A stretch of 64,000 bases of DNA from a virus. Under the pieces are notes generated by a model. The model had not been told where the DNA came from. It made no database searches and was given only the letters and a program-made list of their open reading frames with translations. Positions 661 through 28,213 of this stretch are shown in pieces. Each line of letters opens with the position of its first letter. Positions within the stretch are counted from its first letter, which is position 1. The stretch covers positions 1 through 64,000 of the IMG/VR virus record IMGVR_UViG_3300032770_000012. The stretch is one strand, 5' to 3'. The translations under genes were made by a program, and so were the position numbers.

Positions 661-1368
661 TCATTCTATACCGCATCGCGCGCTTACGTCCATCCAGGCG
701 AGCCACTGAGGCCGGTTGGCAGCACTACCGCCGTCGGTCCCTCTCCGGATTGGCGCGGCAGGCGGAGATGGTGGCAAACAGGCAACCACATCGATCACCT
801 GGAATGCCTTGATCCTTTGCCCGCTGATGTTCTTCAATACGTCCACCCCCTGCGGGACAAAGGTAACAAGCAATCCGCCGACATTGATCGGCCCTACCCT
901 TGCGGCTTGCACGCCTTGCTTCCGCAGTTTCTTGGCCGCTTTCCACGATCCTCCGGCCCAGACAGCATACATGGAGTTTTCCGTGCAGGCATTGGTGCTC
1001 GGGGCGACCGTTCCGTTCAACGGCAGGACCGGTGGTACGCTCCCAGGATTCGGAGCGCCTTTGGCAATGATTGGAGCCACGGTGTGATCGTAAAACGTAT
1101 GTCCGGTAGCAAGCCCAACCTCAATCGCCGTACTCATGGCGACCGCTCCCGAGAGTCCTCCGATCAGAACTCCGATCGATCCGTCCGAGAGGATTTCTCC
1201 AGCAATGTTGTGCCAGTTCAAGCCGCTCCTGGTGTCGATGATGGCCTGACCAGCGGAGGGAGAAATATACTGGATGCCATTTTCTGACGCGGCCTGGTAG
1301 AGTAACCCGGCAGGAACAGATTGTGCGGCGAGTACCGGAGCAAGCCCAACGATCAACGCCAGCTTCAT
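661..1368 (-). CDS. Exported hypothetical protein (Sec signal peptide)
   Basis: N-terminus MKLALIVGLAPVLAA/Q. Confidence 0.6.
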   Translation of the reverse strand: MKLALIVGLAPVLAAQSVPAGLLYQAASENGIQYISPSAGQAIIDTRSGLNWHNIAGEILSDGSIGVLIGGLSGAVAMSTAIEVGLATGHTFYDHTVAPIIAKGAPNPGSVPPVLPLNGTVAPSTNACTENSMYAVWAGGSWKAAKKLRKQGVQAARVGPINVGGLLVTFVPQGVDVLKNISGQRIKAFQVIDVVACLPPSPPAAPIRRGTDGGSAANRPQWLAWMDVSARCGIE

Positions 1369-1371
1369 GGC

Positions 1372-1980
1372 TTATTGTTTCTGCCAATATGTGCTGCGTC
1401 CCATTCCGTTCGACACGACATCGAGCACATAGGTTCCGGTCGAATCCTTGTATGGCTCTCCGTACTTGGCTCCGCCAGCTTCATACTCAAGCGTTGCTGG
1501 ATAATTCGGAAGATAGATGTCTCCCACCGCGAGCGGGCCGATTGGGCTCTGGTTTGGCGGAACAGGGATCGGGGCGGGTGGCGGATTGAAGGGCGGATAG
1601 TCAGCCAGGTTGATCGAGACCTTGATGCTTCCAGGTGGTGGAATAGTGGGGTACGGTCCTAGTGTTCCAGGAGTGTCTAGCCCTGGCTCGGAGTACTGCC
1701 CCGGCATCCCGAGACCGGGCTGTAAGGCCGAGGGCACCCAGATCAGTCCAGCCGCAAGGCGCTGTTCCATGCAAAGAAATGGGTCCCAACCAAATGCCAT
1801 GATCGGAGCGTCGATCAGGAATCCTCTACGTGCGAGTATTGCAGCGCGCCCGGCGCGCGCCGCGATGTTCTGCTCGCTGTCGTCGGGAAGCGCCAATAGC
1901 GCGGCTATCTCCGGAGGCTGCGAGGCGAGATAGGCCGCATTGAACGTTTGTTGCTGCGTAGGAGTCGGGGAGTTGGGCAT
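1372..1980 (-). CDS. Pro-rich hypothetical phage protein
   Basis: ATG 1980 just after the upstream stop; tight operon spacing. Confidence 0.65.
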   Translation of the reverse strand: MPNSPTPTQQQTFNAAYLASQPPEIAALLALPDDSEQNIAARAGRAAILARRGFLIDAPIMAFGWDPFLCMEQRLAAGLIWVPSALQPGLGMPGQYSEPGLDTPGTLGPYPTIPPPGSIKVSINLADYPPFNPPPAPIPVPPNQSPIGPLAVGDIYLPNYPATLEYEAGGAKYGEPYKDSTGTYVLDVVSNGMGRSTYWQKQ

Positions 1981-1993
1981 TATCTTGTGATCC

Positions 1994-2608
1994 TCATTGC
2001 ATTCTGAAAACGGTTCGGTCAAAGAACAGCCAGTAGAACTTTCCCGCCGCAAGCGCGCCCGGCTTCGGGTCGGTCGTTCCGTCATTCTGCTTGATTGCTC
2101 GCGGTCCAAGGCTGCTAATGTTGAGCGTCGCCGGGCCAGCGCTGGAAACGTCCGGTCGGAATACGACGAACTGCCCTTCCACATAGGCCGTCGCCTGCGT
2201 CAGATTGCAGCTATAGGCGGCTGTCCCTGCCTTCGAGGCGCAATACCACGGTTGTCCACTCTGGGCGTTGAGGATGCTAAGAGCGACAGCGGTATCCAAA
2301 GATGCGGTGCATACGGTCTGGCTCGCAGCGCTTGTTTTGCAAGTGACTACGATTCCCACGCCAGAACCGAGAGTGATGTTAGAGCCGGAACCGCTTCCGG
2401 GCGGTCCCTGCGGCCCTGCTGGACCAGTTGCTCCAGTTGCTCCAGTTGCTCCAGTTGCTCCGGTTGCTCCAGCGGGGCCAGCGGGGCCAGCGGGGCCGGT
2501 GCATTGCAATGTTGGAGGATTGGTTGCGGAGACCGTGCATGGCAGCATGATCTGGATTCCCTGCGCAGAGGCGATTGATCCGAACAGCAGAAGAACTCCT
2601 AGTTTCAT
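1994..2608 (-). CDS. Collagen-like fibre protein with signal peptide and tail-fibre-type C-terminal domain
   Basis: MKLGVLLLFGSIASA/Q; about 11 G-X-Y triplets; ATLNISSLGPRAIKQNDG motif of phage fibre domains. Confidence 0.75.
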   Translation of the reverse strand: MKLGVLLLFGSIASAQGIQIMLPCTVSATNPPTLQCTGPAGPAGPAGATGATGATGATGATGPAGPQGPPGSGSGSNITLGSGVGIVVTCKTSAASQTVCTASLDTAVALSILNAQSGQPWYCASKAGTAAYSCNLTQATAYVEGQFVVFRPDVSSAGPATLNISSLGPRAIKQNDGTTDPKPGALAAGKFYWLFFDRTVFRMQ

Positions 2609-5600
2609 AGCGACAAATCATTGGCGGTTGCTATCACAGCGCCAGAGGAATCCAAGAACAGAATTTGATAGTAGAGTTTTCCGATCGCCGGGTCCCAAGG
2701 GATTGTGACCGATCCGGTGGAACTATTTATCGTTTGCGCTGCGCTGTTCGCGAGAGCGTATGGCGTGTGAGCGTAGCGAATCTGGATTGAGGCTGCATTG
2801 CCCAAGTTCACATTGAGCGTTGGAGGATTGTATTCTGCCGCTCCATTGTTGGCGCATAAATAGATGACCGTTCCGCCCGTTGGGAACGTGGGGGTATCTG
2901 ACGTTGCTCCTACTGCTAGTTGCGTGACCGTAATCCCGTTGACGCTGTGCAGAACGTACCGAATCGGCGCTTGACCCGCGACCGTGCAACCGGAGATGTC
3001 AATCGTCCGGCTGATTGGTGCGCCGAATGCGGATTGAATCAGCAGTAAATTGCCTTTGCTGGACGACCGCAGATCGCAGTCGAACCAAAACCCAAGACCA
3101 GGACAACCGTTGGCGGCTGGGGTGCCGTACAGATAGCCGGTTTGCGCGAAGCGCTGCGAAGCCAGTTGCGGAGTAGCATGAGCCCAATATCCCGCCATCA
3201 TCGAGCTGTCGCCGTTGTCATAGAACGGATGAATAGACGGCTGTAGTTCGTGAGCTGTGCTGTTGACTGCGAGAGTTGCTGCACTGTAATAACTGAAACT
3301 GTTGTACGGGCCGATATTGTCATAGAGCCGGGTGCCGGTACCGCGTGCTACGGCGGCTTGCATGTCAATCCATGCACCTTGGTAAGGTCCAGTCAGGGTC
3401 TCTTCGCTGCCACCCTCCGAGGACTGATACGCCGAGTAGAGCCCTTTGTGGTACTCGGCGTCCGGGTAAAGCTGTACACTTATCGTTCCGGAGGCGTCAC
3501 CAGACGGCAGGTATTCCATGACTTTGCTGGTGGTGTTGCAGTTCGGGTCTGGCAACGGGACCATTGTACTTGGAGAATAAAACGTGGTGGAGTTATAGTA
3601 ACTCGCACCGGCTCCTATGACACCTGTGAGAGTAAAATCCTGACCATTGTGGATGCAATGGTCCGTGGCGGGCAAGTTAAAATTATCGACGTGCCCGCCG
3701 CCCTGCGTTGTCAAGGTAATATTTGTCAGGGACAAAACACTGCCGTCAGACCAGTGCATTGTCCCGCCACTACCTTCGTCAGTCTTGACCTGCCCGCCAC
3801 TCGACGTGGCTCCGTTGCCGTTGGTGGCAAGAGTGAACTCTGTTGGGCTCACAATCGATGCCACCGTATAGGTCCCGCTGTTCAGAGACGTCATCCCGGT
3901 GACGCCAGTAAAGCTCACCAGGCTATTGACAGTAAGGTTATTGGCTGTGCTGGTCACAACATCGACCGGCACGCCAGATCCAGTGGTGATAGTCGTGATC
4001 GATCTGGGACCTCCACCCGGCACCAAATGCGCGCCCTCGCGGGCCACCCGAAGTGTGGTAGAGGTAGGCGCTGCGGTTACGCAAAACGTAGCGTTCCAAT
4101 CTGAGTTACTCGAACCACTGATAACTAACTGGGTCCCGCAGTGGCCGATGACATTACGGATGCCGTGATCGGACGGAAAAGTGCATGTGTCTCCACTGCA
4201 ACTCGTGCCGCTCAGAGAGTTTGGTTCGGCAAGGTAATAGTCGGACAGAATCCCGCCCACTTGACCTAGAAATGCTCGCTGACTTCCGGCGTTACCGATG
4301 ACGGCGCGGAATTCATAGGCTGGATTCCCTGTGATTGCGTTCCCGCCTGGTCGTAGGTTAATGAGGTCTACCAGTTGCGCGAGTTGCGGAGTGTTGGTAC
4401 GCCCGATACCAATGTAAACTTCACAAAAATCTGAAAAGCTGGAATTGCCGCAGTACATAGGGGAAGGTAGAATATTTCCACCATTCTGATTTGACGCCAT
4501 CGGATGCCCAATAGTCGGATGCGGATTAGCGGCCCTCAATTGAGAAATCAGGGTGTTATAAATTGAATTCGGCATGAAGTCTTTCGCGGCGTCTTCCTGA
4601 TGCCAAGCGAAAGTGTTGATAGTACCAGAAGCAATGTCAAGGTTAGTGGCACCGCTGGGCGCGGTAAACGTGTTCCCGGACCCAAGGCTATACGCGCCTG
4701 GATTGGAGTCAAGCGCTGTGCCTGTTCCTGAGATACTGAACTTGCGGTTGCAGTTCGCATAGTCCATGCCGAAGCTTGTGTATGGTCCGCCCGCAAAGGT
4801 CAGAGAAGGCCATGTGATTGTGCCTATCGGAGGGGTTGCGTTGTTGGTAGTGATCCTTGTAGGGCCACTGGTTGCCCCAATAGTTCCTACCGGACCTGGA
4901 TAGGTGAGTTGCTGGTAATTTCCTTCGTCATGACCGCTGAAACCGATGGCATTGTGAGGGAGCCAATAGCCTGCCACCCAAGACATAGGGGCCTTGGTCC
5001 ACCCTGCGTTGTTGTTGTAGCCGATTGTATAAGCCCAGAAATAATCGGCTGTGCTGCCCAAACCGTCAGGATAACCGTTTCCGGCGCTATTGCAAGACAA
5101 CTCGCCACTCAAGACCGGATGAAAATACAACGGTGCCCCATTCGTGTAGTTCGCGTAGTTGGTCCATTTTGCAATGTAATTTTGAACGTCGGTTTTGAAA
5201 GTGTTTTCCGAGGTCGCCATTGCAGTTTCGCCTGTCGCACCTGGTTCAACCGAATTAAACCCTGCTACTGTATAGGCAACTCCGAAAAGGGAGAGGCGAT
5301 TCTGGATGAGAGGATCGGCAAAACCAGACAGGGTTGATGAAGTGTTAAAGGAGTCCGCCAGCCACATGCAATCGGAAGCGCTCGTGCAGGTGGTGTGAAT
5401 CTGCCCATCGGTTCCGAAATGCGGAATGGGGCCGGGTGAATTATTCACCATTCCGTAGATAGACACCGTAGGTCCGGTCGATGGTGTCATGATGCCGCTG
5501 ACTGTCGCCGTGACGATACAGAGTCCGAAGTTGACTCCAGATGTTGCACTGACCAGTCCTGAACTGTTGACCGAACAGATGCGAGTGCTCGCAGGGTTCG

Positions 5601-6453
5601 ACTGGTTAACTGTAGTAATATCCGTGGTTCCCCACGTTACAGAGGAGCATGCGCCGCCGTCCGAGCCATCCGCGTTGCGTTTCTTGCACGTAAGCTGAAT
5701 CGTTCCGTTTGCCGGAATGGTCCAGTTTATCGGGCTGATAATCGCCTCACTCGCTGTGGTTGAGTTGGAGAACGTGATTTGCTTGCACCACTCACCCAAT
5801 GGCGCATGAAGTGTATTGTCCTTTGTGAACATACACACTAGGTGCGATCCGTTGGGCCATGCCGAGGAATCGAGTATCGCACTCGTGGGTGATCCTTGGC
5901 CCGAGTTACGATAATCTCCGTCCACTGAGGTATTGAGCGACTTGCTGTCGGTACCGGAGTTCGTTCCCGTGAAACTCGCCGAGAAATTGCACTTGCCGGT
6001 CCAGGTCGTGGTCGTACACCCCGAACCTCCTGTACCGTTGGTCACCGTCAAAGCCGAGAAGTAAATCTGCGATGGCGTGTACCGAAAGGCGTTATTGATC
6101 GTGATGCCGGTATTTGTCGCGGTGCAGAGCAAGCTGTTCGCGGCATCGTACACGTTGACTGTGATCCAGCCATAACCCGGCGTATCGAATCGTAGGTTGG
6201 TGTTCCATGTCATTGACCACTGCGGTTGGCCGGAAGTGAGCCAGATGCGACTACCCGGAGATGGTTGCGTGTCGCCATCGAAAATCACTTCGACGGAATG
6301 GGCTGATGGAGCGCCGCTGATGCTTCCCGTGATGTTGTACGCTAGGCCGTTTATAGTTGCATTGCTGGCCGGGGTAGTGACGGGGCAGGTCGGAACTGCG
6401 TACAGTTCCGTGGCACAAAGAACAAGGAAGGAAACGATAATTTTATTGAACAT
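2605..6453 (-). CDS. Large exported multidomain protein: Ig-like domains, possible glycoside-hydrolase-like core, E1_FCCH-like repeats
   Basis: Signal MFNKIIVSFLVLCATELYA; N-terminal Ig-like beta segments; FSGHDEG; VSFTGVTGMTSLNSGTYTV repeat type seen in phage tail proteins; many Cys pairs. Confidence 0.6.
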   Translation of the reverse strand: MFNKIIVSFLVLCATELYAVPTCPVTTPASNATINGLAYNITGSISGAPSAHSVEVIFDGDTQPSPGSRIWLTSGQPQWSMTWNTNLRFDTPGYGWITVNVYDAANSLLCTATNTGITINNAFRYTPSQIYFSALTVTNGTGGSGCTTTTWTGKCNFSASFTGTNSGTDSKSLNTSVDGDYRNSGQGSPTSAILDSSAWPNGSHLVCMFTKDNTLHAPLGEWCKQITFSNSTTASEAIISPINWTIPANGTIQLTCKKRNADGSDGGACSSVTWGTTDITTVNQSNPASTRICSVNSSGLVSATSGVNFGLCIVTATVSGIMTPSTGPTVSIYGMVNNSPGPIPHFGTDGQIHTTCTSASDCMWLADSFNTSSTLSGFADPLIQNRLSLFGVAYTVAGFNSVEPGATGETAMATSENTFKTDVQNYIAKWTNYANYTNGAPLYFHPVLSGELSCNSAGNGYPDGLGSTADYFWAYTIGYNNNAGWTKAPMSWVAGYWLPHNAIGFSGHDEGNYQQLTYPGPVGTIGATSGPTRITTNNATPPIGTITWPSLTFAGGPYTSFGMDYANCNRKFSISGTGTALDSNPGAYSLGSGNTFTAPSGATNLDIASGTINTFAWHQEDAAKDFMPNSIYNTLISQLRAANPHPTIGHPMASNQNGGNILPSPMYCGNSSFSDFCEVYIGIGRTNTPQLAQLVDLINLRPGGNAITGNPAYEFRAVIGNAGSQRAFLGQVGGILSDYYLAEPNSLSGTSCSGDTCTFPSDHGIRNVIGHCGTQLVISGSSNSDWNATFCVTAAPTSTTLRVAREGAHLVPGGGPRSITTITTGSGVPVDVVTSTANNLTVNSLVSFTGVTGMTSLNSGTYTVASIVSPTEFTLATNGNGATSSGGQVKTDEGSGGTMHWSDGSVLSLTNITLTTQGGGHVDNFNLPATDHCIHNGQDFTLTGVIGAGASYYNSTTFYSPSTMVPLPDPNCNTTSKVMEYLPSGDASGTISVQLYPDAEYHKGLYSAYQSSEGGSEETLTGPYQGAWIDMQAAVARGTGTRLYDNIGPYNSFSYYSAATLAVNSTAHELQPSIHPFYDNGDSSMMAGYWAHATPQLASQRFAQTGYLYGTPAANGCPGLGFWFDCDLRSSSKGNLLLIQSAFGAPISRTIDISGCTVAGQAPIRYVLHSVNGITVTQLAVGATSDTPTFPTGGTVIYLCANNGAAEYNPPTLNVNLGNAASIQIRYAHTPYALANSAAQTINSSTGSVTIPWDPAIGKLYYQILFLDSSGAVIATANDLSL

Positions 6454-7630
6454 AAGCCGCATTCATCTGGCCCCCGCCCGCGCTAGCTGTCCACGGGGCC
6501 GCGCCATCGAGGATCAGGACAAACGGCAGGATCGCCGTCGCAGTGTCGGTGAATGTGATGCCGTCCGAAGTGGCCGTCTGAACCGTTGCACCGAACGGTG
6601 TCAATGCTTCTGAGGCTGCGGCGCTATCGATGGTATAGGTTACCGTGTCCCATCTATTGGACGACGTGTCGGACTGCGTACTCTCGCACATTGTCACCCG
6701 CACGGTCGTCCCGCCAGCAATCGTCTGTGTTGAAGTGAATGATTGCCGCAACCATCCCTGGTTAGTGGTCGTGAGTCCAGCGAATTGGGCGTGAGCCACA
6801 CCGTTGGTGTGCGCCAACAGAGTTGGGGTTGTTGTCCCGCCCGTATAAATGCAGTACTGAAGGTTTCCGGTCGGAGTGCCTACCTCGCGGTTTATCCACA
6901 TCGATACGCCGGTCACTTGCAGTGTGACGTTCGCGGGAAGCGTAAACTTTACGCCGATCTGATTGGCTGCGAACACACCGTTGGTCGTGCCGGTTTGCGC
7001 ATAGTTGGTCGCAAGGAATCCGTCGTGGGTCGAATCACTCCAATCCAACCTTAATCCCCAAATGTTGTAGTTTACGCTCGCACCGGTCCATGTACTTCCT
7101 GAATCTGTTGATACCTCGCTGGCCCAAGTGAGCGCTGCAACGCTTGTAAGCCCGGTCTGTGCGGAGGCATTGGCCCCTCCGTATACGCTCAGGTAGTTGC
7201 TCGCGGGCGTTCCGTTTGCGTTCTTGATGACGACCCAGTACTGCGTCCCGGCTGTGTAACTCCCCGTGAACCCGTTGAAGACCACTGTGCCGGTTACTAC
7301 GGTGGCCGGGGTTGTCGATGTCGAGGTTTCAAGAACCGTGCCTGATGGCGTGCTGGTACCGCCCGCTACCGGGGTAGTCGATTCAATGCTGGCCGTGATG
7401 TCACCGGAGCCCAATGTGCCGGTAACGATACCTGATACTGCGAGAGTGCTCAGCGTCTTCGTTGCCTGAGGCACGAAGGAAAAGGCGCACCATCTGCCTG
7501 CTGCGCTGGTTGCACATGAGACTCGATTGGGCCCGCTGTTTGGAATGAACCCCACAAACTGCGGGAAGCGGCTGCCTTGCGCGAGTAGCGAATTGCAGGA
7601 AATTGCGAGGAGTAGAAACAAGCGTTTCAT
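6443..7630 (-). CDS. Exported beta-rich virion-region protein
   Basis: MKRLFLLLAISCNSLLA/Q; Thr/Ser/Gly-rich; YTAGTQYWVVI strand motif. Confidence 0.65.
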   Translation of the reverse strand: MKRLFLLLAISCNSLLAQGSRFPQFVGFIPNSGPNRVSCATSAAGRWCAFSFVPQATKTLSTLAVSGIVTGTLGSGDITASIESTTPVAGGTSTPSGTVLETSTSTTPATVVTGTVVFNGFTGSYTAGTQYWVVIKNANGTPASNYLSVYGGANASAQTGLTSVAALTWASEVSTDSGSTWTGASVNYNIWGLRLDWSDSTHDGFLATNYAQTGTTNGVFAANQIGVKFTLPANVTLQVTGVSMWINREVGTPTGNLQYCIYTGGTTTPTLLAHTNGVAHAQFAGLTTTNQGWLRQSFTSTQTIAGGTTVRVTMCESTQSDTSSNRWDTVTYTIDSAAASEALTPFGATVQTATSDGITFTDTATAILPFVLILDGAAPWTASAGGGQMNAAYVQ

Positions 7631-7631
7631 A

Positions 7632-10196
7632 TTAGTTAGCAGCAATCGATACGTTGGCGTTCACCGAATTGATGCTGGCGAATCCTGATGCCACGAAACA
7701 GAATTCCGTCACGCCGGTCACGCTGGTGCTCCACGACGTAAGCGTCGTGTCGCGCTTTTCCGCCACCGTCGTCATGGTTTCGCCACCATTGGAAATATCC
7801 GACGTTGAACCAACGCCCGTGTAAGAGCTAAGCGCGACGGTCTGAACTTTGACCGTTACAGTGCCTGCGGTGCCCCCGTCTCCGGTGGACATTTGGAAGG
7901 AATTTATTGTGCCCGTGAAATCGACCGGAACACAAGCCGTCGTCGCTCCTGGGGTCAACGTGGCTCCTACATGCCGTAAGACTTGGTTGGCGGGCAGTTG
8001 CGATGCGGTCGCTGAGCCGCTGAGATTGCTGAAGGCTAACTGAGCGCAGTTGTTTGAACCGCTGGTCCAACCTTGCGACCAATTGTTGCCTGTGCAGGCC
8101 GACGCGGTGTTCGCCGCCGCCGCCGTTCCGAGCGCGCCGCCATCAGTAAGGGTGACTTTTCCGCTGACCACGGCAACTGTGACATTGTGACCATTGGTCG
8201 GAGCGGAAGCGAATGGCGCGACGATTCCATCCGCTCCATCCCAGATATGCACGTTGGTATTGGTGGTGTCGTAACCGATGTTGTTCGCTGAAGTGGCCGC
8301 GAAATTAGAAGCGGCGGGGAGCTTGGTATTGGCAGCCGAAAAATCTTGTAGCCCGGTAGAGTAAGTATTGGCCTGCCCGGTGCCCACTAGGTTTCCGGTC
8401 GGTGCGGTAAGCGATGTTCCCCAGGCTGAGCCAGTGGACACCGCGATGCCCGCTGGTGGATACACCATGCCGCCGCCGCCACTCGAACTACCCATCAGTT
8501 CAAAGACGCAATGCGTCAGTGTTGGAGGGCTACAACCGCCACCGGAGGACTGCAAGGTGATCCACTGAGGTTGATTGGCGATCAGTGCGCCCCCAGGATC
8601 GGTCGATCCATCAGGATTCTTAATGTTTACTTGACCTAGGGTATCGATGTTGACATTGCAACTCGAACTGCAAGTCGTGTCCACGTTTAGCACGAACACT
8701 TGACCTATCGTGTAGGTACTGAGCGTCCTCGCCGCACTCAGGGAACACGTATAATTCGTGTTGCCAGTAATCGAGTTGCAGTAAAGCGGCGCTCCGCTCT
8801 GAGCCGCCGCAATTGTTAATGCGAAGCCGGTGTCTAAGCTGGGAAGCGCAACCCCACCTCCAGAGTTGGTCAACGTGAATCCTGTACCGAAATTTAGCGT
8901 CGAACAAGTGAATCCGCCTGCCCCACTCAGTTCGCAAGTGAGAGATCCGCCTCCGCCGCCTGTGTACTGCGGAATGTTTAGCGTGTTGCCGACAAGTGTG
9001 GCCGGGCCGCTACTGCCCGTGGTGGTCAGTGTCAAGGCTCCTTGGTACACCGGAATATTCAGGGTGTTGGTCGCCTGCGTATAGGTCGCAGCGTTGGATG
9101 TCCCCGTCGTCGTCAAGGTAATCGGCAAATTCGTTAAGTTGGCAGCGCTGCCGTTGTTGACCAGCAGAGTTCCTCCTGCGGTCGGAAACGTCCACGTGCT
9201 AGAAGACGGGATCGCGAAGACCGCGCTGAATGCTCCGGTTGTGCTGAAATTTCCGGAGAGCGACACGGTCTTGCCGCCGATCGAAGCGACGGTGCAATTC
9301 GGCATTGTTCCGGATAGATCCCCGCCGCAAGCCGTCGATGTCGTCACCGTCCCTAACATGGTATTGACCTGTGATGCGCTCAGCGCGGTCACTGGTCCGG
9401 ACGCGCCCGTGTTGTTTCCGGGTATTGAGTGGGCCGCAATATTAGCCATCCCGCTCAATGGCAAACTCGTGGCATGAGTCAGTACCAAGGTCGTCGGCGT
9501 ACCGAGATCGGCACTTACCGAGGTACCACAGGAGAAGGCGTCGGTGCTTTGCGTGTAATTCAGATGATTGCCAGCAGAATCTACGCAGTCCGATATTACC
9601 GAGGCCCCGAACACGGCTGGTGTCGCCCCATTGCTGATAAGCGTCGCGTGAGCAGGGGCCGCGTTCAAGGCCGCACCGAGCCCACCGTAGGTAGTCCCGA
9701 TAACCGTACCGTGCCATACCCCGGTCGTGATTGTGCCGATGCTGGAGAGCGCCGAGAGCGTCGTTACGGAGGCGTCCACTTTGCCGTTGAATGTGGCCCA
9801 ATCGGCAGCGGTCAGAAGTCCTCGATTACTGGCGGAGGCCGAAGGAAGATTGAAGGTATGGGTTGTGGCGGCGCTGGAGATGCTGAAGTCGGTACCGGAC
9901 GTGCCTATTGCAAAACTTTGCGTTGCGTCAGTCAGGCCATTCAATGACGCGATCCCGACTCCTCCAGCCGTTCCCTGCGCTTCCCAAGTGTTCGTAGCAA
10001 TGCAGTAGTAGATGCGATTGCCGGATACGCAACCATTGCCCGTGCAAAGATAAACGGATCGATGGGCGACGCACGTTGCCGGACGACTTGCCAGCGGTCC
10101 AGCACCTACCGTTCGCCAGTTAGGATCAGGCGGGAAACTGCTCCCCTGGCCAAATAATACCGCCGTGGCGAATACAAAAGCTGCGAATGTTCTCAT
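7632..10196 (-). CDS. Tail-fibre-like protein with signal peptide
   Basis: MRTFAAFVFATAVLFG/Q; ASASNRGLLTAADWATFNGK, ITTGVWHGT and duplicated LTTTG..ATL..TLNIP motifs typical of phage fibres. Confidence 0.75.
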   Translation of the reverse strand: MRTFAAFVFATAVLFGQGSSFPPDPNWRTVGAGPLASRPATCVAHRSVYLCTGNGCVSGNRIYYCIATNTWEAQGTAGGVGIASLNGLTDATQSFAIGTSGTDFSISSAATTHTFNLPSASASNRGLLTAADWATFNGKVDASVTTLSALSSIGTITTGVWHGTVIGTTYGGLGAALNAAPAHATLISNGATPAVFGASVISDCVDSAGNHLNYTQSTDAFSCGTSVSADLGTPTTLVLTHATSLPLSGMANIAAHSIPGNNTGASGPVTALSASQVNTMLGTVTTSTACGGDLSGTMPNCTVASIGGKTVSLSGNFSTTGAFSAVFAIPSSSTWTFPTAGGTLLVNNGSAANLTNLPITLTTTGTSNAATYTQATNTLNIPVYQGALTLTTTGSSGPATLVGNTLNIPQYTGGGGGSLTCELSGAGGFTCSTLNFGTGFTLTNSGGGVALPSLDTGFALTIAAAQSGAPLYCNSITGNTNYTCSLSAARTLSTYTIGQVFVLNVDTTCSSSCNVNIDTLGQVNIKNPDGSTDPGGALIANQPQWITLQSSGGGCSPPTLTHCVFELMGSSSGGGGMVYPPAGIAVSTGSAWGTSLTAPTGNLVGTGQANTYSTGLQDFSAANTKLPAASNFAATSANNIGYDTTNTNVHIWDGADGIVAPFASAPTNGHNVTVAVVSGKVTLTDGGALGTAAAANTASACTGNNWSQGWTSGSNNCAQLAFSNLSGSATASQLPANQVLRHVGATLTPGATTACVPVDFTGTINSFQMSTGDGGTAGTVTVKVQTVALSSYTGVGSTSDISNGGETMTTVAEKRDTTLTSWSTSVTGVTEFCFVASGFASINSVNANVSIAAN

Positions 10197-18862: not shown

Positions 18863-18864
18863 GA

Positions 18865-20995: not shown

Positions 20996-21022
20996 TGAGA
21001 TTCACGGCGCTCGCTCTGCGCT

Positions 21023-21232: not shown

Positions 21233-21264
21233 CCGGCCTCCTGTCTGGACAGTTTACACGGATG

Positions 21265-21483
21265 TCACTTCGAATGCACACTATATTTCGCGGTAGGGTA
21301 TCGGGCGAAATATCGATGCCAAAATCGATCTGTGCATCGACCGAGCGGCAGAGGACCTGGATACGCTCCCTGCGATGGCCTGGATGGGGCGCTCGCCAGA
21401 GACCAGACCGCTTGCCGTGGCAGAAATGTCCAGAACTGGACATCTTCGGGATGACCAACGCGGACCAGAAAGATATCGATCAT
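21265..21483 (-). CDS. Hypothetical protein
   Basis: ATGA overlap with the upstream gene. Confidence 0.45.
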   Translation of the reverse strand: MIDIFLVRVGHPEDVQFWTFLPRQAVWSLASAPSRPSQGAYPGPLPLGRCTDRFWHRYFARYPTAKYSVHSK

Positions 21484-21659
21484 GCGCGATGCTTTAGTGC
21501 TTTCAGAATCCGATTTACTTCTTCGGTCCGTTTGTCGTCATCCTCATCGGAACGCTCTATTCTTGGGGGATTGTCTCGCTTCAGATAGGAGTCCGAGAGT
21601 GTTCGCCGCGCTGCGGAGCTAGCACGATCCGGTCCGCTCGCCATATCGTCAAGGCGCAT
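21480..21659 (-). CDS. 59-aa hypothetical protein (MRLDDMASG...)
   Basis: TAATG overlap with the portal stop; below the ORF-track cutoff. Confidence 0.5.
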   Translation of the reverse strand: MRLDDMASGPDRASSAARRTLSDSYLKRDNPPRIERSDEDDDKRTEEVNRILKALKHRA

Positions 21660-23548
21660 TAGATCGGGCTCCCTGTACGTTGGCTCCGTGTCATGCGGGG
21701 TGTTCTGCCCGGCGCTTGAGGCATTGCGGAATGTTCGGCTTTCAGGCGCGCTAAGATTTGTTCCGTTTCCTGGCGACCAAAACCAGCTTTTCTCAACAGC
21801 GTCTCCGTATCTAATTTACCCAAACGGGCCAATACCAGCGCAATCTGTTGCTCCCGATCTTTAGAAGATCCCAGCAAAGATCCGGCCACGATCTCTATGG
21901 AGAAGTTTCGCCAAAATACCTCCTTTGCCATACCTGCCGGGATCATCGTGTCCGGGTCCCAGTCGCAGTCCTCGATTACCTGACCATCGGTGCCTAGGAT
22001 CTCGATACGGGATTTGAGATTAAAATATTGCAAACAATTTGAAACGGCCTGGATTCCGCTCTCGCCCAAGAACGCCTCAATGAACCGGCCTTCCAGCCTG
22101 AAGTGACTGCCTTGCGAGTCGCGCATCTGCTCGACCGTGTCCGCTCCTGGGACCTGTTTCTTTTTGGCAAGCTGCGTCATGTCCAGGTTTCCGGCGTGGC
22201 CCTGGAAGGCGGGCAGTAAGTATTGCAGGAGGAATTGCATTACGTAGGCCGGGATTTCCGGGGCCTGCAAGGTGCGGATATCCTTGGTCGGATCGGCGTT
22301 CGGCATCATGCGCAGCTTGGCCCCCGGTATGTCCGGGAAAAAGCGGTCCCAATCGGCGTCGGCAATCGCGCCTTTGCGGCCTGCTATCGTTGGCCGGATG
22401 GCCCTGCGGATCATCTCGATCACGCCTGCCGGGATTTCATTGAGTGCGTCCTGGAGTGGCATGAGATTCCGGTACTTTGACAACCCGCGCGGTGCCCACA
22501 CTACCGGATCGAGCATCAACATGGCGAAGGGATACAGCCCATGGAAGTATGGGTTTGGTCCGTCGTATAGCGGTCGGTCGCCGCCGAATACCAGGAGCCG
22601 TTTGCGCGGAAACAGCTTTTGTCCGGGCTTCACCAAGTACCAGTAGTTGTGCTCGAACGGAGAAAGATTGGGGTCTCGCACCAGTTTTGTTTCGCGGCTG
22701 TCGTTGGTGCTGTCGTCCTCAATCCAATACTCCTCAAGCGGAATGATCGGATAGAGCGCCGTGTCGGATTGCTCCCCCGGACCTTCCACCCTGCGGACTC
22801 TCATCCAGCGCTTCATGGAGGGCGATAATGAAGACCATTGGTACTGCGGCAAGTGCGCTGGCCGCTCGTAAGGCGTGGCGCTTCGCTGTTCGTTGTAGGA
22901 AACGGAGTAGCGCTCCAGGCCATCGGCTTTGTTGCCGAATAACTTCCTGAAGTACTGAATGGTCTTGTGGAGCCGGTAGAGCACTCCGCTTGCAAGCTGA
23001 ATGTTGTTCCCGCAGTGCAGCGGCAACACCGTATCCATGCCGCACGGCGTCACGATCAGACGCGCAGCGCTCACCCCGTCAATGCCGGATACGGCTCCTA
23101 GTTTCCAGAACCCGCAGCCGAACATTGCGTGATCGATCACCTCTGCGAGCGACAGATCGATGCGGCTGCGGTTCCACTCGTGCAGAATGATGTTGGTCAG
23201 GACATCGGCGGTCTTCTTGAATCCTTCGTGCGATGAGCGCACCGTCATCGTAGGACGGATGTCGGTGTATTGCGCTCGGGCGTCCTTGCGGGCTTTTGAA
23301 AGTTGGTTGTCAACGAATCGATTCAGATGCCGGGGCAGGTTCGGGCGGCGTTTCCACTGGTCCCCTTCGAGCGCATCGATATAGTCGCGGACCTTCTCGA
23401 ACTCGCGCGACATCCGAAGTTCCTCAAGGGCTTCTTCCTTGAAGGCTTCCTTCCACTGGATCATCTTGCGGTCGTACTGATCGGGGTAGTCGAGCGTCCC
23501 GGACTTAGACCGCTCCAGCGGAGATCTCGGCATTAGGACAGCGGCCAT
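21659..23548 (-). CDS. Portal protein
   Basis: 629 aa; FGCGFWKL, LEEYW, LYDGPNPYFHGLYPF and LMPLQDALN motifs of P22-like portals; lies between terminase and capsid genes. Confidence 0.85.
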   Translation of the reverse strand: MAAVLMPRSPLERSKSGTLDYPDQYDRKMIQWKEAFKEEALEELRMSREFEKVRDYIDALEGDQWKRRPNLPRHLNRFVDNQLSKARKDARAQYTDIRPTMTVRSSHEGFKKTADVLTNIILHEWNRSRIDLSLAEVIDHAMFGCGFWKLGAVSGIDGVSAARLIVTPCGMDTVLPLHCGNNIQLASGVLYRLHKTIQYFRKLFGNKADGLERYSVSYNEQRSATPYERPAHLPQYQWSSLSPSMKRWMRVRRVEGPGEQSDTALYPIIPLEEYWIEDDSTNDSRETKLVRDPNLSPFEHNYWYLVKPGQKLFPRKRLLVFGGDRPLYDGPNPYFHGLYPFAMLMLDPVVWAPRGLSKYRNLMPLQDALNEIPAGVIEMIRRAIRPTIAGRKGAIADADWDRFFPDIPGAKLRMMPNADPTKDIRTLQAPEIPAYVMQFLLQYLLPAFQGHAGNLDMTQLAKKKQVPGADTVEQMRDSQGSHFRLEGRFIEAFLGESGIQAVSNCLQYFNLKSRIEILGTDGQVIEDCDWDPDTMIPAGMAKEVFWRNFSIEIVAGSLLGSSKDREQQIALVLARLGKLDTETLLRKAGFGRQETEQILARLKAEHSAMPQAPGRTPRMTRSQRTGSPI

Positions 23549-23615: not shown

Positions 23616-24341
23616 TCAGCATGGCCCGGCTCCGAGCAGCTTCATGGTGCAGGCTGGAGTTGCGCCAGCGCTGGCCGCTTTGAAACTAACTACGGCTCCG
23701 ACATAGTAATTGTTGTTTCCGCCCATACTGGCAGTCACACTACTTTGCGTGGAAGAGACTATTTTGTCTTCGGTTGCTCCATAGCCGTTGCCGTCCACGG
23801 CTTCCAGGCCATAACCTGTGCCTGCCGTAAACGTCTGCGAACCGTTGCCACCAAGGCCGTACAGTATGACTTCATTTGCCACCGTCGTAGAAAACGACGG
23901 AGATGTCACCGTGCCGCTCGTGTTACCGCCCTGGCCGACATCTGCGTCTTGCGGGGCGGACGTATCCAAACCGGAGTATTGCAGAACATATATGCAGGGG
24001 TAAGAAAAGGAACCGCCTGTCGGGGTGAGTTTTACAACATTGCTGGAATTCCCGCTGATGTTTTTGGCGTAGAACCACTGCCCCTTGGCACCCGAATCGC
24101 CGCGTGTGTAGGCGGTCACGCCGCTATAGCTGTTTCCAGCCGTATCGCTCACTGACACGGTGGTACTGGTTGTGGACCAAAAAGCGTAAACCGCGATGAG
24201 ATTGCCGCCCGTATGATTCTGCGCGGTGGCCGAAATGTTGGCTTGTGAGCCATTAAGACATGCCGCGGTCTTGTTGACCAGCGTGATCGCCATCAACATT
24301 GGGCTCAACGATATGAGCAACAGTAATTTACTGAACCACAT
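23616..24341 (-). CDS. Exported beta-rich virion-region protein
   Basis: Signal MWFSKLLLLISLSPMLMA; GGNLIAV..VSDTAGNSY and QYSGL motifs. Confidence 0.65.
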   Translation of the reverse strand: MWFSKLLLLISLSPMLMAITLVNKTAACLNGSQANISATAQNHTGGNLIAVYAFWSTTSTTVSVSDTAGNSYSGVTAYTRGDSGAKGQWFYAKNISGNSSNVVKLTPTGGSFSYPCIYVLQYSGLDTSAPQDADVGQGGNTSGTVTSPSFSTTVANEVILYGLGGNGSQTFTAGTGYGLEAVDGNGYGATEDKIVSSTQSSVTASMGGNNNYYVGAVVSFKAASAGATPACTMKLLGAGPC

Positions 24342-24795
24342 AACTAAAGCCACCACTCAACTGCGTCGATCCGCTGATGAAGATGCAGACGTCATCGGCG
24401 TTCGTCGCCTCCTGCGCGAAGGCATGCCCGCCCTCAGCAATCACACGCCCGCCATTGGCCGCTACGTTCCAGCCGCCCGCTGCGGTCGTGCCACCGCTCA
24501 AGCCAGGGAACGCAGCCGTCGAAGTGCCGCACGTCGAGCCTGTGCCTTCCACCACCGCATAATTCTGAGCCGTGCCGCCGTTCTGGTCGTTCCAGGAGCA
24601 GAAGTACACCTTCTTGGCGCTCGTGCCGGTGATGATCTTGGTGTTTCCAGTAAGCGAGAATGTGCCCCACGTGGGCGTGTTGGTCAGGCATGGGTCCGCG
24701 TAGACGGCGGCACCGCCAAGCTGAGACTGATTGATGGGCTGCTGGGCGAACACGAGCAGCGCGAAACCAATTAGGATTGGTGCGATCCAGCGCAT
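24328..24795 (-). CDS. Exported small beta-sandwich protein
   Basis: MRWIAPILIGFALLVFA/Q; four Cys. Confidence 0.65.
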   Translation of the reverse strand: MRWIAPILIGFALLVFAQQPINQSQLGGAAVYADPCLTNTPTWGTFSLTGNTKIITGTSAKKVYFCSWNDQNGGTAQNYAVVEGTGSTCGTSTAAFPGLSGGTTAAGGWNVAANGGRVIAEGGHAFAQEATNADDVCIFISGSTQLSGGFSYVVQ

Positions 24796-24891: not shown

Positions 24892-25536
24892 CTAGTTGTA
24901 GTAGGCGGACACAGAGAATGTCGTGGTGCAGCCGGTCGTCGTCGCGCCAGAGTCGCTTGTTGCTCCGGCGTATGCGATGCCAGTGGCAAAATTCTCGTAT
25001 GCGAGGCCCGAAGCCGGAACAACGACGGTCAGCCCGGCCTGCACAAGTATTGAGTCAACTACTGAGGTTCCCGCTGTTGGCGTGCCCGCGTTGTTGAATA
25101 GCTGGAGCCAGCACGGAACAGTGCCGCTGTTCCCTAAGACAAGAGCGTACAGATTGCCGCCGCTGGCCTTGATGTTTCCTGCGGCCGCGCTCGCATTGTG
25201 AAACTTCGTGAAAGCATAGGTCGAAGACGACTGCGGCGTAGGCGTGCCGATGCTGGCGGCGTTCGTAACGAATGCGTTGACGCCCGGTACGAGTACTGCG
25301 CCAGGCGACGTGCCGTAGTTCGCCATTGCGCCCAATGTTCCGCCCGCCCAGGTCGTCACTCCCACAACCCCGGTGCCATCTGTCGGAAGCTCGACACGGA
25401 GAGCGCCAGCCGCCGTGCCGTGGCCGAGCAGCACGGCTCCGCCACCGTTCACGGTCTGGAGTTGGATCGGCTGTTGCGCAAACACTGCCGTTCCAGCGAG
25501 AACTAGAATGGCAAGAACGTTTCTTAGGACTTTCAT
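24892..25536 (-). CDS. Exported decoration / spike-like protein
   Basis: MKVLRNVLAILVLAGTAVFA/Q; C-terminal IKASGGNLY..WLQLFN domain common in phage structural regions. Confidence 0.65.
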   Translation of the reverse strand: MKVLRNVLAILVLAGTAVFAQQPIQLQTVNGGGAVLLGHGTAAGALRVELPTDGTGVVGVTTWAGGTLGAMANYGTSPGAVLVPGVNAFVTNAASIGTPTPQSSSTYAFTKFHNASAAAGNIKASGGNLYALVLGNSGTVPCWLQLFNNAGTPTAGTSVVDSILVQAGLTVVVPASGLAYENFATGIAYAGATSDSGATTTGCTTTFSVSAYYN

Positions 25537-25841
25537 TTCTTTGCTCCTTCATCTGCCTTCGGTGCGGCCTTTTTCCTGTTGACCGTTAGGCTATTCACGT
25601 CCACTTCGCACGCGCCATCCGGTACTATCCCGGCATAGGCGCAGGCCATGTAGAATCCCAACTGCTCATCTTTTTGCGCGATCTGCATTCTCAAAATGAC
25701 GGCTCGCATGTTCAATTCGTCAACCTGCCTGGTCAGTTCTCCGATGCGCTTCAGTAGCATCGCCGAGTCTGGATCTTGCGGGCAGTTGTCCTGCGCTACG
25801 AGGAGCACGGACGCCAAAAACATCACGATCAGAAGTTTCAT
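25533..25841 (-). CDS. Exported coiled-coil protein
   Basis: MKLLIVMFLASVLLVA/Q followed by a coiled coil. Confidence 0.55.
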   Translation of the reverse strand: MKLLIVMFLASVLLVAQDNCPQDPDSAMLLKRIGELTRQVDELNMRAVILRMQIAQKDEQLGFYMACAYAGIVPDGACEVDVNSLTVNRKKAAPKADEGAKK

Positions 25842-25971: not shown

Positions 25972-26733
25972 TCATGCTGTAAACTCCGATACGCTCAGAG
26001 ATCCGCCAGCAGCACTTGAGGCCACCTGGATCGGACCAGTCCAAAGCGTATCTTCGATAGGAGGGCTCGATCCGTCCGCTGGCGTCCCACATGCGGGCAG
26101 AACGCGATGAAAGTTGGCTGGACCTGCCGTACCAGTCCCATAAAGAACGAAGAATTTGGTCGTGCCAGCGTTCTGTAGCGTAAAGCGCTTCCGGTTAGCG
26201 TTGGTTGCTAGAACCTGAACGGACCCTGTTCCGATGGTCGTCGGCCCAGCCGCGCTGACAGTCGAACTCGTGGGCGGGGCGACGGTCAGGGAGCCAGCCA
26301 CATTGAGCGCACCGGCTGTACTACTGATCGGATTGCCCTGTCCATCGAGCAACTCTACTGGCTGCGGAGTGGTTCCGGTCGGATCGACTCTGATCGGAGC
26401 CGCAAGAACTCCGATTTCAGAGCCGGATGAATTTCTCAAGTTGCCGTGCAGCGCTCTGTAAGCGGTGATTCTTGCGGCTGCGCGTTGTCCGGAACTCAGG
26501 ACGGAAAGACCGTCATTGAACACCCCCGCCGCTGTCGTGATGCTTGAGATCCCGGCGCTGAATACACTCTCGTCGGTCGATGACTCTCCGCCACCGCCAC
26601 CGCCGCCACCGCTGATCCGAAGGTTGCCGTTCAGGTCGCAGGTGAAATTGACAATCTCGCCTTCACTGAAAGTTGGGGGCGCAGCCGTAGCGATAGCCCC
26701 ACGAATGAGTTGACCTTGTTGGATTGTGCTCAT
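25972..26733 (-). CDS. Virion structural protein (no signal peptide)
   Basis: C-terminal VLATNANRKRFTLQNAGT beta-sandwich motif. Confidence 0.6.
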   Translation of the reverse strand: MSTIQQGQLIRGAIATAAPPTFSEGEIVNFTCDLNGNLRISGGGGGGGGESSTDESVFSAGISSITTAAGVFNDGLSVLSSGQRAAARITAYRALHGNLRNSSGSEIGVLAAPIRVDPTGTTPQPVELLDGQGNPISSTAGALNVAGSLTVAPPTSSTVSAAGPTTIGTGSVQVLATNANRKRFTLQNAGTTKFFVLYGTGTAGPANFHRVLPACGTPADGSSPPIEDTLWTGPIQVASSAAGGSLSVSEFTA

Positions 26734-27035: not shown

Positions 27036-27102
27036 GGTTCGCCTTAAAGTTTACGTCCGACGCTACCAGTAAATCAATGGCTTTGTACGGTCTGGACAAA
27101 CG

Positions 27103-27600
27103 CTACGGGGCGTCGATGAAGGCAGCGGGCCGCGACGGAGTCGGGGGCGGGTCCGGTTCTTTGTCGGGCATCAGTTCGGCGGGAACGCTGGTCCAGGAAC
27201 CCGGCATGCCCTGAGTTGACCAGCCTTTGCCGTCCGGTTTGATCTCCATGTGCTGCGGCAGATCGGTTGGATTGTGGACCCCCTCGGATTTGCAGAAGGC
27301 ATTTAGTTCCTGGAACGTATTGATTCGGACCCGCTCAGGTTTTCCGCTCAGAGTGTTCCGCCGTTTCCAGGCCCAGAATCCGCCATCGATACTCTTCTGC
27401 TCGGCGGTCTTGGAAGCGTAACGCTGACTAATCGATCCAGAAAATGGCATGTTGAACGAAGAATAGACGCGCTTCAATTGCGTGCCGCAGGCTTGGCAAT
27501 TCGGCGGATCGATGCCGGTCGGATGCTCCAGCCATTCGACGGCTAGGCCGTAGTAGCGGCAGGAGTCCTTCGGGCAGGCGCTTTCTAGGAGTTTAGCCAT
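27103..27600 (-). CDS. FmdB-like zinc-ribbon protein
   Basis: CPKDSC...CQACGTQLKRVYS. Confidence 0.6.
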   Translation of the reverse strand: MAKLLESACPKDSCRYYGLAVEWLEHPTGIDPPNCQACGTQLKRVYSSFNMPFSGSISQRYASKTAEQKSIDGGFWAWKRRNTLSGKPERVRINTFQELNAFCKSEGVHNPTDLPQHMEIKPDGKGWSTQGMPGSWTSVPAELMPDKEPDPPPTPSRPAAFIDAP

Positions 27601-27892
27601 GGACGCCTTCCACGCCAACCCGATCGCAATCCGTGTCATATCGGAAGACACATCTGCTGACGAAAGTCTTGCCTTCTGGCGCGTTGAGAGCGGTATTCAG
27701 AAATTCGCATCCGCTAATCGTGCAGCACCTTCCAAGCACGAGACGCTGAGGATTTGACTTATCCGACGAGAACACGCAGTCGATAATTGTGCTGTAGTCG
27801 GCCAACACAACCTGGCGCGATAGCTTTATCTCACTTCCCGCTGGTATGGGAAGCCCCATCTCGCAACGCATGATGAGTTCTCTTTCGTCCAC
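27593..27892 (-). CDS. Hypothetical protein
   Basis: Operon spacing. Confidence 0.45.
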   Translation of the reverse strand: MDERELIMRCEMGLPIPAGSEIKLSRQVVLADYSTIIDCVFSSDKSNPQRLVLGRCCTISGCEFLNTALNAPEGKTFVSRCVFRYDTDCDRVGVEGVHG

Positions 27893-27895
27893 GGT

Positions 27896-28213
27896 CTACG
27901 CCTTTGTTCCGGAGATAGTGACGGACCACACTTTGAATGGCACATCCGGGCCCATTGCCGACAGAGAGACGATGGTTGTTTCTGCGGGAACATCCATCTT
28001 TACAACGCCCCTATCCGGGGAAGGAAAGATGTAAGTCTCATCGATCGTAAGGCCGCAAGAATTTATCATCTTGATTACGAGACCGGCCTTTGAAACACAG
28101 TCGATCAGCGCAACTCTGCCGTTTCTCTGAGCGGGGGCGGCTTCGCCTTTCGGGGCTATGAAAAGCCCGAGCGTCACTGCCCAAATTCGGGAAAGCAGGT
28201 CACGGCGATTCAC
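27896..28213 (-). CDS. Hypothetical protein with Tat-like signal
   Basis: GTG start in a GTGA overlap; NRRDLL twin-arginine motif, h-region and EAA cleavage site. Confidence 0.5.
   Translation of the reverse strand: MNRRDLLSRIWAVTLGLFIAPKGEAAPAQRNGRVALIDCVSKAGLVIKMINSCGLTIDETYIFPSPDRGVVKMDVPAETTIVSLSAMGPDVPFKVWSVTISGTKA

Follow-up and report, generated by a model that had tools for sequence, protein, structure and literature searches.

Export signals on late, fibre-like proteins of a podovirus-like soil phage: probable folding in the host periplasm

The structural parts of tailed phages are assembled, according to the textbook view, wholly in the cytoplasm. The locus described here raises the question of whether a phage may send fibre-like proteins across the inner membrane of its host, and of where such proteins would end up. 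The window is a stretch of 64,000 nucleotides (positions 1 to 64,000 of the IMG/VR record IMGVR_UViG_3300032770_000012), and is part of a complete, podovirus-like genome of 101,193 bp from a soil phage. No published description of this pattern in tailed phages was found.

Leader-bearing genes of the late block

Genes relevant to the analysis are listed below in the order in which they are read. Predicted leader cuts are marked by a slash, and +1 denotes the residue after the cut.

28792..31068, minus strand: large terminase, leaderless, with which the late block begins
27896..28213, minus strand: 105-aa ORF with a twin-arginine (Tat-like) leader, APA/Q, GTG start
25972..26733, minus strand: 253-aa protein (g253), leaderless, fibre- or spike-like, encoded ahead of the leader cassette both here and in related viral contigs
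25533..25841, minus strand: 102-aa leader protein, Gln at +1, coiled-coil-like
24892..25536, minus strand: 214-aa leader protein, with leader, A/QQP, flexible repeats, C-terminal jelly-roll knob and an invariant Cys pair
24328..24795, minus strand: 155-aa leader protein, A/QQP, 4 Cys
23616..24341, minus strand: 241-aa protein with a hydrophobic N-terminus, 4 Cys, cut site uncertain
21659..23548, minus strand: P22-like portal, leaderless, bordering the small leader cassette
10602..11887, minus strand: two SU10-type adaptor paralogues, leaderless, marking the head-tail junction immediately upstream of the large leader proteins
10251..10568, minus strand: 105-aa protein with N-terminal membrane anchor and coiled coil, i-spanin-like by eye, directly upstream of the 854-aa gene
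7632..10196, minus strand: 854-aa leader protein, cut after residue 16, Gln at +1, tail-fibre repeat modules
6443..7630, minus strand: 395-aa leader protein, Gln at +1, two CBM-like beta-sandwich domains
2605..6462, minus strand: 1285-aa leader protein, 26 Cys, start at 6462 or 6453
1994..2608, minus strand: 204-aa leader protein, Gln at +1, collagen-like Gly-X-Y run, three Cys pairs
661..1368, minus strand: 235-aa leader protein, Gln at +1, internal hydrophobic stretch
29..657, minus strand: gene pair g84 (two hydrophobic helices, holin-like by eye) and g125 (conserved, without family)

Leaders were called by a rule-based scan of our own, not by SignalP; the rule asks for a positive n-region, an uncharged hydrophobic core of 8–16 residues and small residues at -3/-1. 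Nine ORFs to which the first-pass annotation had assigned Sec-type signals (starts at 1368, 2608, 6462/6453, 7630, 10196, 24341, 24795, 25536 and 25841) were all recovered on the minus strand with those starts, and all nine score as leaders in the scan. Gln is found at +1 of the predicted cut in seven of them, the number originally claimed, and in 8/10 if the twin-arginine ORF is included. The latter, read by eye, features N-R-R-D-L-L, a hydrophobic core, a Lys and APA/Q, as expected of the Tat signal proposed at 28213, and there is a 4-nt overlap between its GTG and the upstream stop. Leaders, charged, hydrophobic and of AxA type, mark 10 of the 36 late-block genes and none of the ~105 other ORFs (rule-based scan; Fisher p = 4e-7); the leader genes are labelled "virion-region" by position only. 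No lipobox was found in the leader proteins, which measure 102–1285 aa; a Cys close to a potential cut occurs in the 241-aa protein alone, in a poor context.

Directly behind the adaptor genes come the large leader genes, spaced by -20 to +1 nt among themselves. The late proteins without leaders include two giant ones (1548 and 1567 aa) and several further unknowns. Pfam and PHROGs returned nothing for 8/10 leader proteins, and no match for the giant proteins or the g84/g125 pair; PDB sequence searches were empty. No family was found for the 1285-aa protein, for which an Atlas search was empty as well. Among GenBank phages, relatives were found neither for the 854-, 214- and 395-aa proteins nor for one leaderless member of the 395-aa family. 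The nearest named cluster of g253 is the PRD1 P5 spike N, which is a lead only. Among lysis functions, neither a standard lysozyme nor an SLT endolysin was found in the phage; the 10251..10568 protein has no family match, and no o-spanin was found.

The phage encodes neither DsbA nor thioredoxin, so that export or folding helpers of its own were ruled out. Leaderless paralogues of the leader proteins are likewise missing from the phage. Synthesis of each protein in two forms, with and without leader, was rejected because no internal starts with a ribosome site lie near the cut sites.

The leader genes might be morons or serve lysogenic conversion, being expressed independently and altering the surface of the lysogen, and the small cassette indeed changes genome site among relatives. 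Such an origin is nonetheless very improbable. Promoter and terminator signals around the leader genes do not rise above chance, and separate expression was rejected on this basis; starts and stops overlap inside the late operon, and no integrase was seen in the phage. Moreover, the 214-aa family occurs in only 1/401 Acidobacteriota genomes, which does not fit prophage carriage.

Conservation, cysteines and fibre-like folds

Leaders are kept in homologues. The 214-aa protein has >360 relatives; among the 120 listed, 104 carry a leader, nearly all ending in A/QQP, with Gln at +1 in 84/104, and the Cys pair is invariant. Small residues at -3/-1 and the following Gln are kept in >100 relatives while the hydrophobic core varies freely, which is the signature of a cleaved leader. 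In related viral contigs taken together, Gln occupies +1 in 55/117 leader ORFs. Leaders are also borne by the homologues P0011, P0023 and P0092.

This pattern bears on the possibility that the N-termini are not cleaved, and act as signal anchors which tether the proteins to the inner membrane, facing periplasm or cytoplasm, until lysis, or that some are false positives of a simple rule. All calls come from the rule-based scan only; the 241-aa protein has no clean cut site, the 235-aa protein has a second hydrophobic stretch, and the neighbouring 105-aa protein (10251–10568) clearly has an anchor rather than a leader. The retention of cut-site residues next to a freely drifting core goes against anchors, as do the close Cys pairs of the leader proteins, which point to an oxidising compartment, and uncleaved N-termini are thus held to be improbable. 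The ten N-termini are best explained as real export signals, nine Sec-type and one Tat-like.

A cassette made up of g253, a small coiled-coil protein, the 214- and 155-aa proteins and a larger leader protein is found again in several viral contigs, at differing sites within structural regions. Homologues of the 155-aa protein with the same leader were found in three contigs (L005, L006, L052), and come after the 214-aa gene in other viral contigs; in L008 a similar small leader protein fills the slot of the 102-aa protein. In distant relatives the small cassette is missing, and terminase and portal genes are nearly adjacent. The g84/g125 pair also flanks leader cassettes in L005 and L052, the architecture of the 235-aa protein adjoins this pair in a related contig, and leader cassettes adjoin lysis-type genes both here and in L088.

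The 395-aa family differs, as a leader was found in only 24/150 members and most are leaderless. The mature end of the leader form aligns with Met-1 of the leaderless relatives, so that the leader is a pure N-terminal add-on; a Cys pair has been gained where leaderless relatives have Leu. This suggests that the 395-aa protein may do the same mature job via a different route.

The mature leader proteins contain 72 Cys in 3520 residues (2.05%, vs 0.98% in the leaderless late proteins). Cys residues are even in number in 7/9 leader proteins, and mostly form pairs spaced 4–20 residues apart. The 854-aa protein has 20 Cys arranged in ten close pairs, its Cys content being 2.4% vs a mean of 0.20% in leaderless fibre homologues. 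A strict correspondence between Cys-richness and leaders was rejected, P0006 being a Cys-rich homologue without leader.

The mature proteins are fibre-like: between them they have a collagen repeat, modules shared with tail fibres, a knob of jelly-roll type and CBM-like sandwiches in tandem. The fibre and collagen motifs and the paired Cys reported in the first-pass annotation are confirmed. The 204-aa protein, which has the collagen repeat, matches tail-fibre PHROGs, and is 43% identical to residues 453–546 of the 854-aa protein, which is composed of modules common to hundreds of phage fibre proteins. The model of the 395-aa protein (pLDDT 89) has its best fold matches in phage baseplate and tail-tip proteins (phi812 baseplate, Z 12.4; Bxb1 tail tip, Z 10.9) and in CBMs; the knob of the 214-aa protein matches C-terminal domains of phage fibre proteins. 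No tail-anchor domain was recognised in the leader proteins, and most fibre homologues have one where the leader stands here. A word-indexed search found no relatives of the 95 N-terminal residues of the 854-aa protein, which shares the start Q-G-S-x-F-P with the 395-aa protein.

An Acidobacteriota host is weakly indicated by sequence. The terminase shares 25.6% identity with those of Tunturi phages, and one Bryobacterales bin carries both a related contig and a Glu_cyclase_2 gene. The Q-rule has been described as exclusive to Bacteroidetes (PMC5837995, PMC10653852). Gln was found at the picked site in 26% and 21% of cases in two Acidobacteriota genomes vs 13% in a Hyphomicrobium control; samples are small and enrichment over this alphaproteobacterial control is modest, and a Q-rule in Acidobacteriota is not established. 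In the structural module of Tunturi 3, a cultured Acidobacteriota podovirus with no homology to this phage, the same scan found leaders in 0/30 genes, and the leaders are thus not a general trait of Acidobacteriota phages.

Fate of the exported proteins

Leaders on late, fibre-like, Cys-rich proteins imply probable folding in the host periplasm rather than in the cytoplasm. Export and disulfide folding had been proposed from the outset, and this part of the proposal gains from the conservation of leaders, the Cys pattern and the clean add-on of the 395-aa leader; judged from these features, the late fibre-like proteins are very probably exported and folded in the periplasm. The further idea that they are receptor-binding or decoration parts added at lysis is plausible.

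The pathway would run as follows. Late in infection, fibre, knob and CBM-type proteins would pass the host inner membrane. Signal peptidase I would take off the leader, mostly exposing a Gln that may cyclise to pyroglutamate, and the host periplasmic oxidising system would close the Cys pairs. Breaching of the inner membrane at lysis could then bring the matured proteins into contact with particles already filled with DNA and devoid of fibres, to which they would attach as fibres for host recognition or decoration. In vitro attachment to particles is known for P22 tailspikes and T4 fibres.

That the proteins join particles after lysis is the leading reading, because the record of the cultured phage phi18:3 lists three leader-bearing proteins in virions (MS/MS); the chances are put at one in two. 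Modules shared with leaderless fibre proteins, and genes which directly follow the adaptor genes with start/stop overlaps, also speak indirectly for addition to the virion. Against docking, the leader proteins have no recognisable virion-anchor domain, the 1548- and 1567-aa proteins and other leaderless unknowns could be the true tail parts, the proteins would be diluted after lysis, and the phi18:3 proteins, which are non-homologous to these, could have been detected as co-purifying material. Given export, docking is rated as even or marginally better than even.

The leader proteins might otherwise be exported and never enter the virion, and act in the envelope of the infected cell, where they could attach to or cover glycans of the surface or periplasm and so keep progeny from being trapped on debris, shut out other phages, or help to loosen the envelope or exopolysaccharide at release. 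Known leader-bearing proteins encoded amid tail genes (T5 Llp, phi80/T1 Cor, lambda Lom) are of that kind. The small cassette, absent in distant relatives and placed at another site in closer ones, behaves as accessory modules do; the 214-aa protein consists of leader, flexible linker and knob, with no visible anchor domain, and leader cassettes lie beside lysis-type genes here and in L088. Q-rule leader proteins of Porphyromonas gingivalis phages have been taken as host-surface modifiers (PMC10367356). On the other hand, masking would be a costly use of ten proteins with ~3500 residues in total, among them a modular fibre of 854 aa and one with a collagen triple helix. They have no lipobox of the Llp or Cor type and no evident outer-membrane route. 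Leaderless homologues are collinear with the mature 395-aa protein, so the same protein works unexported in most phages, and the phi18:3 leader proteins are reported in virions. A role in the envelope is the main rival to docking, and less probable than it.

If fibres do routinely mature in the periplasm, this would explain how phages come by disulfide-stabilised, protease-resistant receptor-binding proteins suited to harsh soils, and infectivity would require a further step after holin triggering. Annotation practice would need revision, as pipelines now take a leader as the sign of a non-structural gene, and the recombinant making of phage receptor-binding proteins would be affected. We suggest, tentatively and at somewhat less than even chances, that in this phage and in many unrelated soil and marine phages the host-recognition gear of the virion may be made as Sec substrates, trimmed, perhaps capped with pyroglutamate, given its disulfides in the periplasm, and added to particles built in the cytoplasm only after the inner membrane has been breached; this would amount to a two-compartment assembly pathway for Caudoviricetes. 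Should the proteins remain in the envelope, they would represent late phage effectors that act on host glycans, as a class both large and widespread. In both cases, the question can be tested in a cultured system such as phi18:3, on family-level data (the >360 relatives of the 214-aa protein, and the 395-aa family with its leader and leaderless forms).

Comparison with known systems

T5 Llp, phi80/T1 Cor, and lambda Lom and Bor bear leaders, are encoded beside receptor-binding genes and act in the envelope of infected cells. They are single small lipoproteins or outer-membrane proteins, in contrast to the ten proteins found here, which measure up to 1285 aa, have no lipobox and feature fibre modules.

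In the Cellulophaga phage phi18:3 (RefSeq NC_021794), gp085, gp086 and gp087 have Sec-type leaders, two with Gln at +1; the three are marked in the record as virion proteins by MS/MS, and their genes lie directly upstream of the lysis genes, at a distance from those of the head. As in the phage described here, three large leader proteins are consecutive, and the ~70-kb phage has two giant virion proteins. In contrast, the phi18:3 host belongs to the Bacteroidota and gp085–087 have few Cys (0–3). No sequence similarity between the two phages was detected by tblastn, and a relation between them was rejected. We know of no discussion of the phi18:3 leaders.

Leaders of P. gingivalis phages expose Gln on proteins of unknown function, which have been interpreted as secreted modifiers of the host (Matrishin et al. 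2023, PMC10367356). The Gln-exposing cut is shared with 8/10 proteins here; unlike these, the P. gingivalis phage proteins are not fibre-like proteins of a virion operon. The MAT fibres of Bdellovibrio bacteriovorus are trimers resembling phage tail fibres; they carry a signal peptide, and their glycan-binding tips, TNF-like or of beta-sandwich type, bear disulfides (Caulton et al. 2024, PMC10769870). They show that a phage-fibre architecture with disulfide tips can be exported via signal peptides. MAT fibres differ in being encoded by bacterial genes and placed on the predator's own surface, and share a conserved 130-aa domain after the leader, not seen here.

Ordinary podovirus tail fibres, as in SU10-type phages, resemble the leader proteins in layout, with modules in repeats, a run of collagen type and a knob at the C-terminus, and with genes right after those of SU10-type adaptors. 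They are leaderless and feature an N-terminal anchor, whereas in the proteins described here a predicted cleavable leader replaces the anchor and the Cys content is ~10x higher.

Genome and late block

The window takes in the opening 64 kb of one record of 101,193 bp, which the collection rates as a 100% complete virus. Its positions 1-128 recur at 101066-101193 of the record, and this 128-bp direct terminal repeat marks the record as a complete genome, circularly permuted or terminally redundant. Nearly all genes from 29 to 31068 lie on the minus strand, and the late operon runs over the ends of the record into two giant ORFs. The main landmarks are:

28792-31068, minus strand, large terminase
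21659-23548, minus strand, P22-like portal
16225-17193, late gene, major head protein
10602-11887, minus strand, two SU10-type adaptor paralogues
91685-101043 of the whole record (7686-17044 of L001, the segment spanning them), two adjacent giant late proteins of 1567 and 1548 aa, no family match

Terminase, portal, head protein and adaptors identify the phage as podovirus-like. Among cultured phages, Tunturi 1 and 2 of Acidobacteriota come nearest, with a terminase identity of just 25.6% (PMC11924767). HNH homing-endonuclease genes were found at 15221-16201, 19199-19978 and 56887-57468; the insertions in the structural operon adjoin the head protein gene or come after the portal gene, and the second HNH gene has an early-region paralogue at 39% identity. 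A plus-strand island (20042-21588) interrupts the minus-strand late block; several hydrophobic helices mark one of its ORFs (271 aa), and an unusual 1.7-kb gap separates the portal from the next late gene. A 274-aa ORF of the tail module (13349-14173) looks nucleotide-sugar transferase-like by eye; no match was found in Pfam and PHROGs.

Export leaders, their conservation and gene neighbourhood

Leaders were called over the whole genome by our own rule-based scan, not by a trained predictor. The first-pass annotation had assigned export signals to about ten virion-region proteins; all the ORFs that it named exist, each with a charged, hydrophobic, AxA-type N-terminus. Strong leaders are restricted to the late block, where 10 of 36 genes have one vs none of ~105 other ORFs (p = 4e-7); in the cultured podovirus Tunturi 3 the same scan called no leader among the 30 proteins of the structural module. 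The reported preference for Gln after the cut is borne out by 8 of 10 predicted cuts, and the ORF at 28213, singled out for a twin-arginine signal, has an RR motif of the kind seen in Tat signals, its GTG start overlapping the upstream stop. No internal starts giving leaderless isoforms, leaderless paralogues or phage-encoded DsbA or thioredoxin were found in the genome.

Conservation in relatives argues that the leaders are real. Homologues keep them in the case of the 214-aa and 155-aa proteins, and in a minority of the 395-aa family. The 214-aa protein (24892-25536) has 361 relatives; by the rule-based scan, 104 of the 120 listed bear a leader, and Gln is the first mature residue in 84 of these, nearly all cut between A and QQP. 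The hydrophobic core of the leader is free to vary in this family, and two cysteines of the C-terminal domain are invariant. Homologues of the 155-aa protein have the same kind of leader and QQP. The 395-aa protein (6443-7630) belongs to a family of 467 representative clusters, mostly ~370 aa, in which only 24 of 150 listed members have leaders. This family is the most informative case: in its alignment the leader is a clean N-terminal extension, the predicted mature end matches Met-1 of leaderless relatives, and the leader form found here has a Cys pair at positions where other members have Leu.

Mutually unrelated leader proteins of the small cassettes (24892-25536, 24328-24795; 10617-14690 in the related viral contig L008) start, when mature, with Q-Q-P-(I/V), and the 854-aa and 395-aa proteins both with Q-G-S-x-F-P. 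Such a common start may serve as a tag for docking or for blocking proteases.

The five large leader genes lie downstream of the adaptor genes and of a small anchor-plus-coiled-coil gene, are tightly packed (-20 to +1 nt), and are followed by two genes, one for a holin-like product with a pair of hydrophobic helices, the other for a conserved protein of 125 aa. At 658-663 the stop of the 235-aa gene is in frame with the holin-like ORF g84, one codon on; readthrough is unlikely because the two are separate genes in the related contig L005. The four small leader genes reside between terminase and portal, behind g253, a gene for a leaderless fibre- or spike-like protein of 253 aa. The order g253, small coiled-coil leader protein, 214, 155, larger leader protein recurs in viral contigs. 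In the closest relatives, on contigs of up to 96.5 kb that share 39% identity in the portal and 51% in the head protein, the cassette comes after the head genes, in one further contig it adjoins the g84/g125 pair (holin-like and 125-aa genes), and distant relatives with near-adjacent terminase and portal are without it. On a short viral contig, genes for four leader proteins in a row, one of them of the 395-aa family, precede a lysozyme-like gene. Glycosyltransferase-like ORFs directly follow the L008 leader cassette (17260-20593). No promoter or terminator signal was found above chance.

Gln right after the leader cut has been described as exclusive to Bacteroidetes (PMC5837995, PMC10653852), and was noted on proteins of unknown function in P. 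gingivalis phages (PMC10367356). In the samples compared (G001, G003, G402; L057-L086, L127, L136-L155, L100-L109, L156-L169), the frequency of Gln at the picked cut site is 26% for a Bryobacterales bin, 21% for a complete Acidobacteriota genome and 13% for a Hyphomicrobium bin; the excess in Acidobacteriota is suggestive, not significant. Should it persist when whole proteomes are run through a trained predictor, the rule may not be Bacteroidota-exclusive. Host-bin leaders with Gln mostly have Q-T. An Acidobacteriota host is uncertain, because 1 of 401 Acidobacteriota genomes has a member of the 214-aa family, on what may be the contig of a binned phage, and the Gln excess falls short of significance.

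Folds and cysteines of the leader proteins

The fibre and collagen motifs of the first-pass annotation hold for part of the set. The 204-aa protein has a collagen-like run, matches tail-fibre PHROGs, and has a domain of 95 residues in common with the 854-aa protein. The latter is a mosaic whose repeat modules occur in hundreds of phage proteins; the proteins sharing these modules have typical fibre N-termini where the 854-aa protein has its leader. The 1285-, 235-, 241-, 155- and 102-aa proteins match no family (Pfam, PHROGs; Atlas for the first). In the model of the 214-aa protein, a leader helix and flexible repeats precede a jelly-roll predicted with confidence (pLDDT above 90). The jelly-roll matches C-terminal domains in proteins of uncultured phages, a few of them annotated as tail fibre or collagen-repeat, and weakly C1q, CBM36 and Ena; on other viral contigs the same knob forms the end of large fibre-like proteins that have no leader. 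The 395-aa model (pLDDT 89) has two beta-sandwiches, with a phi812 baseplate protein as top match (Z 12.4, rmsd 2.9, 145 aligned), followed by a PBCV-1 minor capsid protein, the Bxb1 tail tip and many carbohydrate-binding modules.

The paired cysteines reported earlier were recovered: mature leader proteins contain 2.05% Cys vs 0.98% in leaderless late proteins, mostly in even counts, with pairs 4-20 residues apart. The 854-aa protein has 2.4% Cys, its leaderless fibre homologues 0.20% on average. Its few homologues with leaders cut between A and Q are Cys-rich as well; P0006, a further homologue, is Cys-rich but bears no leader.

Fate of the leader proteins and known systems

The sequences and models show the anatomy of the leaders and its conservation, a cysteine signature, folds of fibre or lectin type, and genes tied into the late operon. 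Very probably, the leader proteins cross the host inner membrane by Sec or Tat, lose the leader to signal peptidase I and form disulfides in the periplasm. With moderate confidence, the exposed Gln would be cyclised; the one candidate host bin has a glutaminyl cyclase gene.

Docking of the mature proteins on particles, after the inner membrane is breached, is the favoured prediction, since they correspond to phage proteins that lack leaders and are composed of virion modules, their genes hold the fibre position with no other fibre gene recognisable, and a cultured precedent exists in gp085-087 of Cellulophaga phage phi18:3. As the main rival, the leader proteins would act in the envelope and never join the virion. 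Counting against docking, no virion-anchor domain was recognised in the leader proteins, the cassette behaves as a mobile accessory module, and the true tail parts might be the two giants and several other late proteins without leaders.

All three precedent proteins have leaders and, in the RefSeq record of phi18:3, an MS/MS-based annotation as virion proteins. Like the present phage, phi18:3 encodes a pair of giants; its own (1612 and 1935 aa) are virion proteins detected by MS. That such architectures can be exported is shown by Bdellovibrio MAT fibres (PMC10769870). A literature search turned up no account of tailed phages whose fibres bear leaders; the closest published cases are the MAT fibres and the P. 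gingivalis phage note (PMC10367356).
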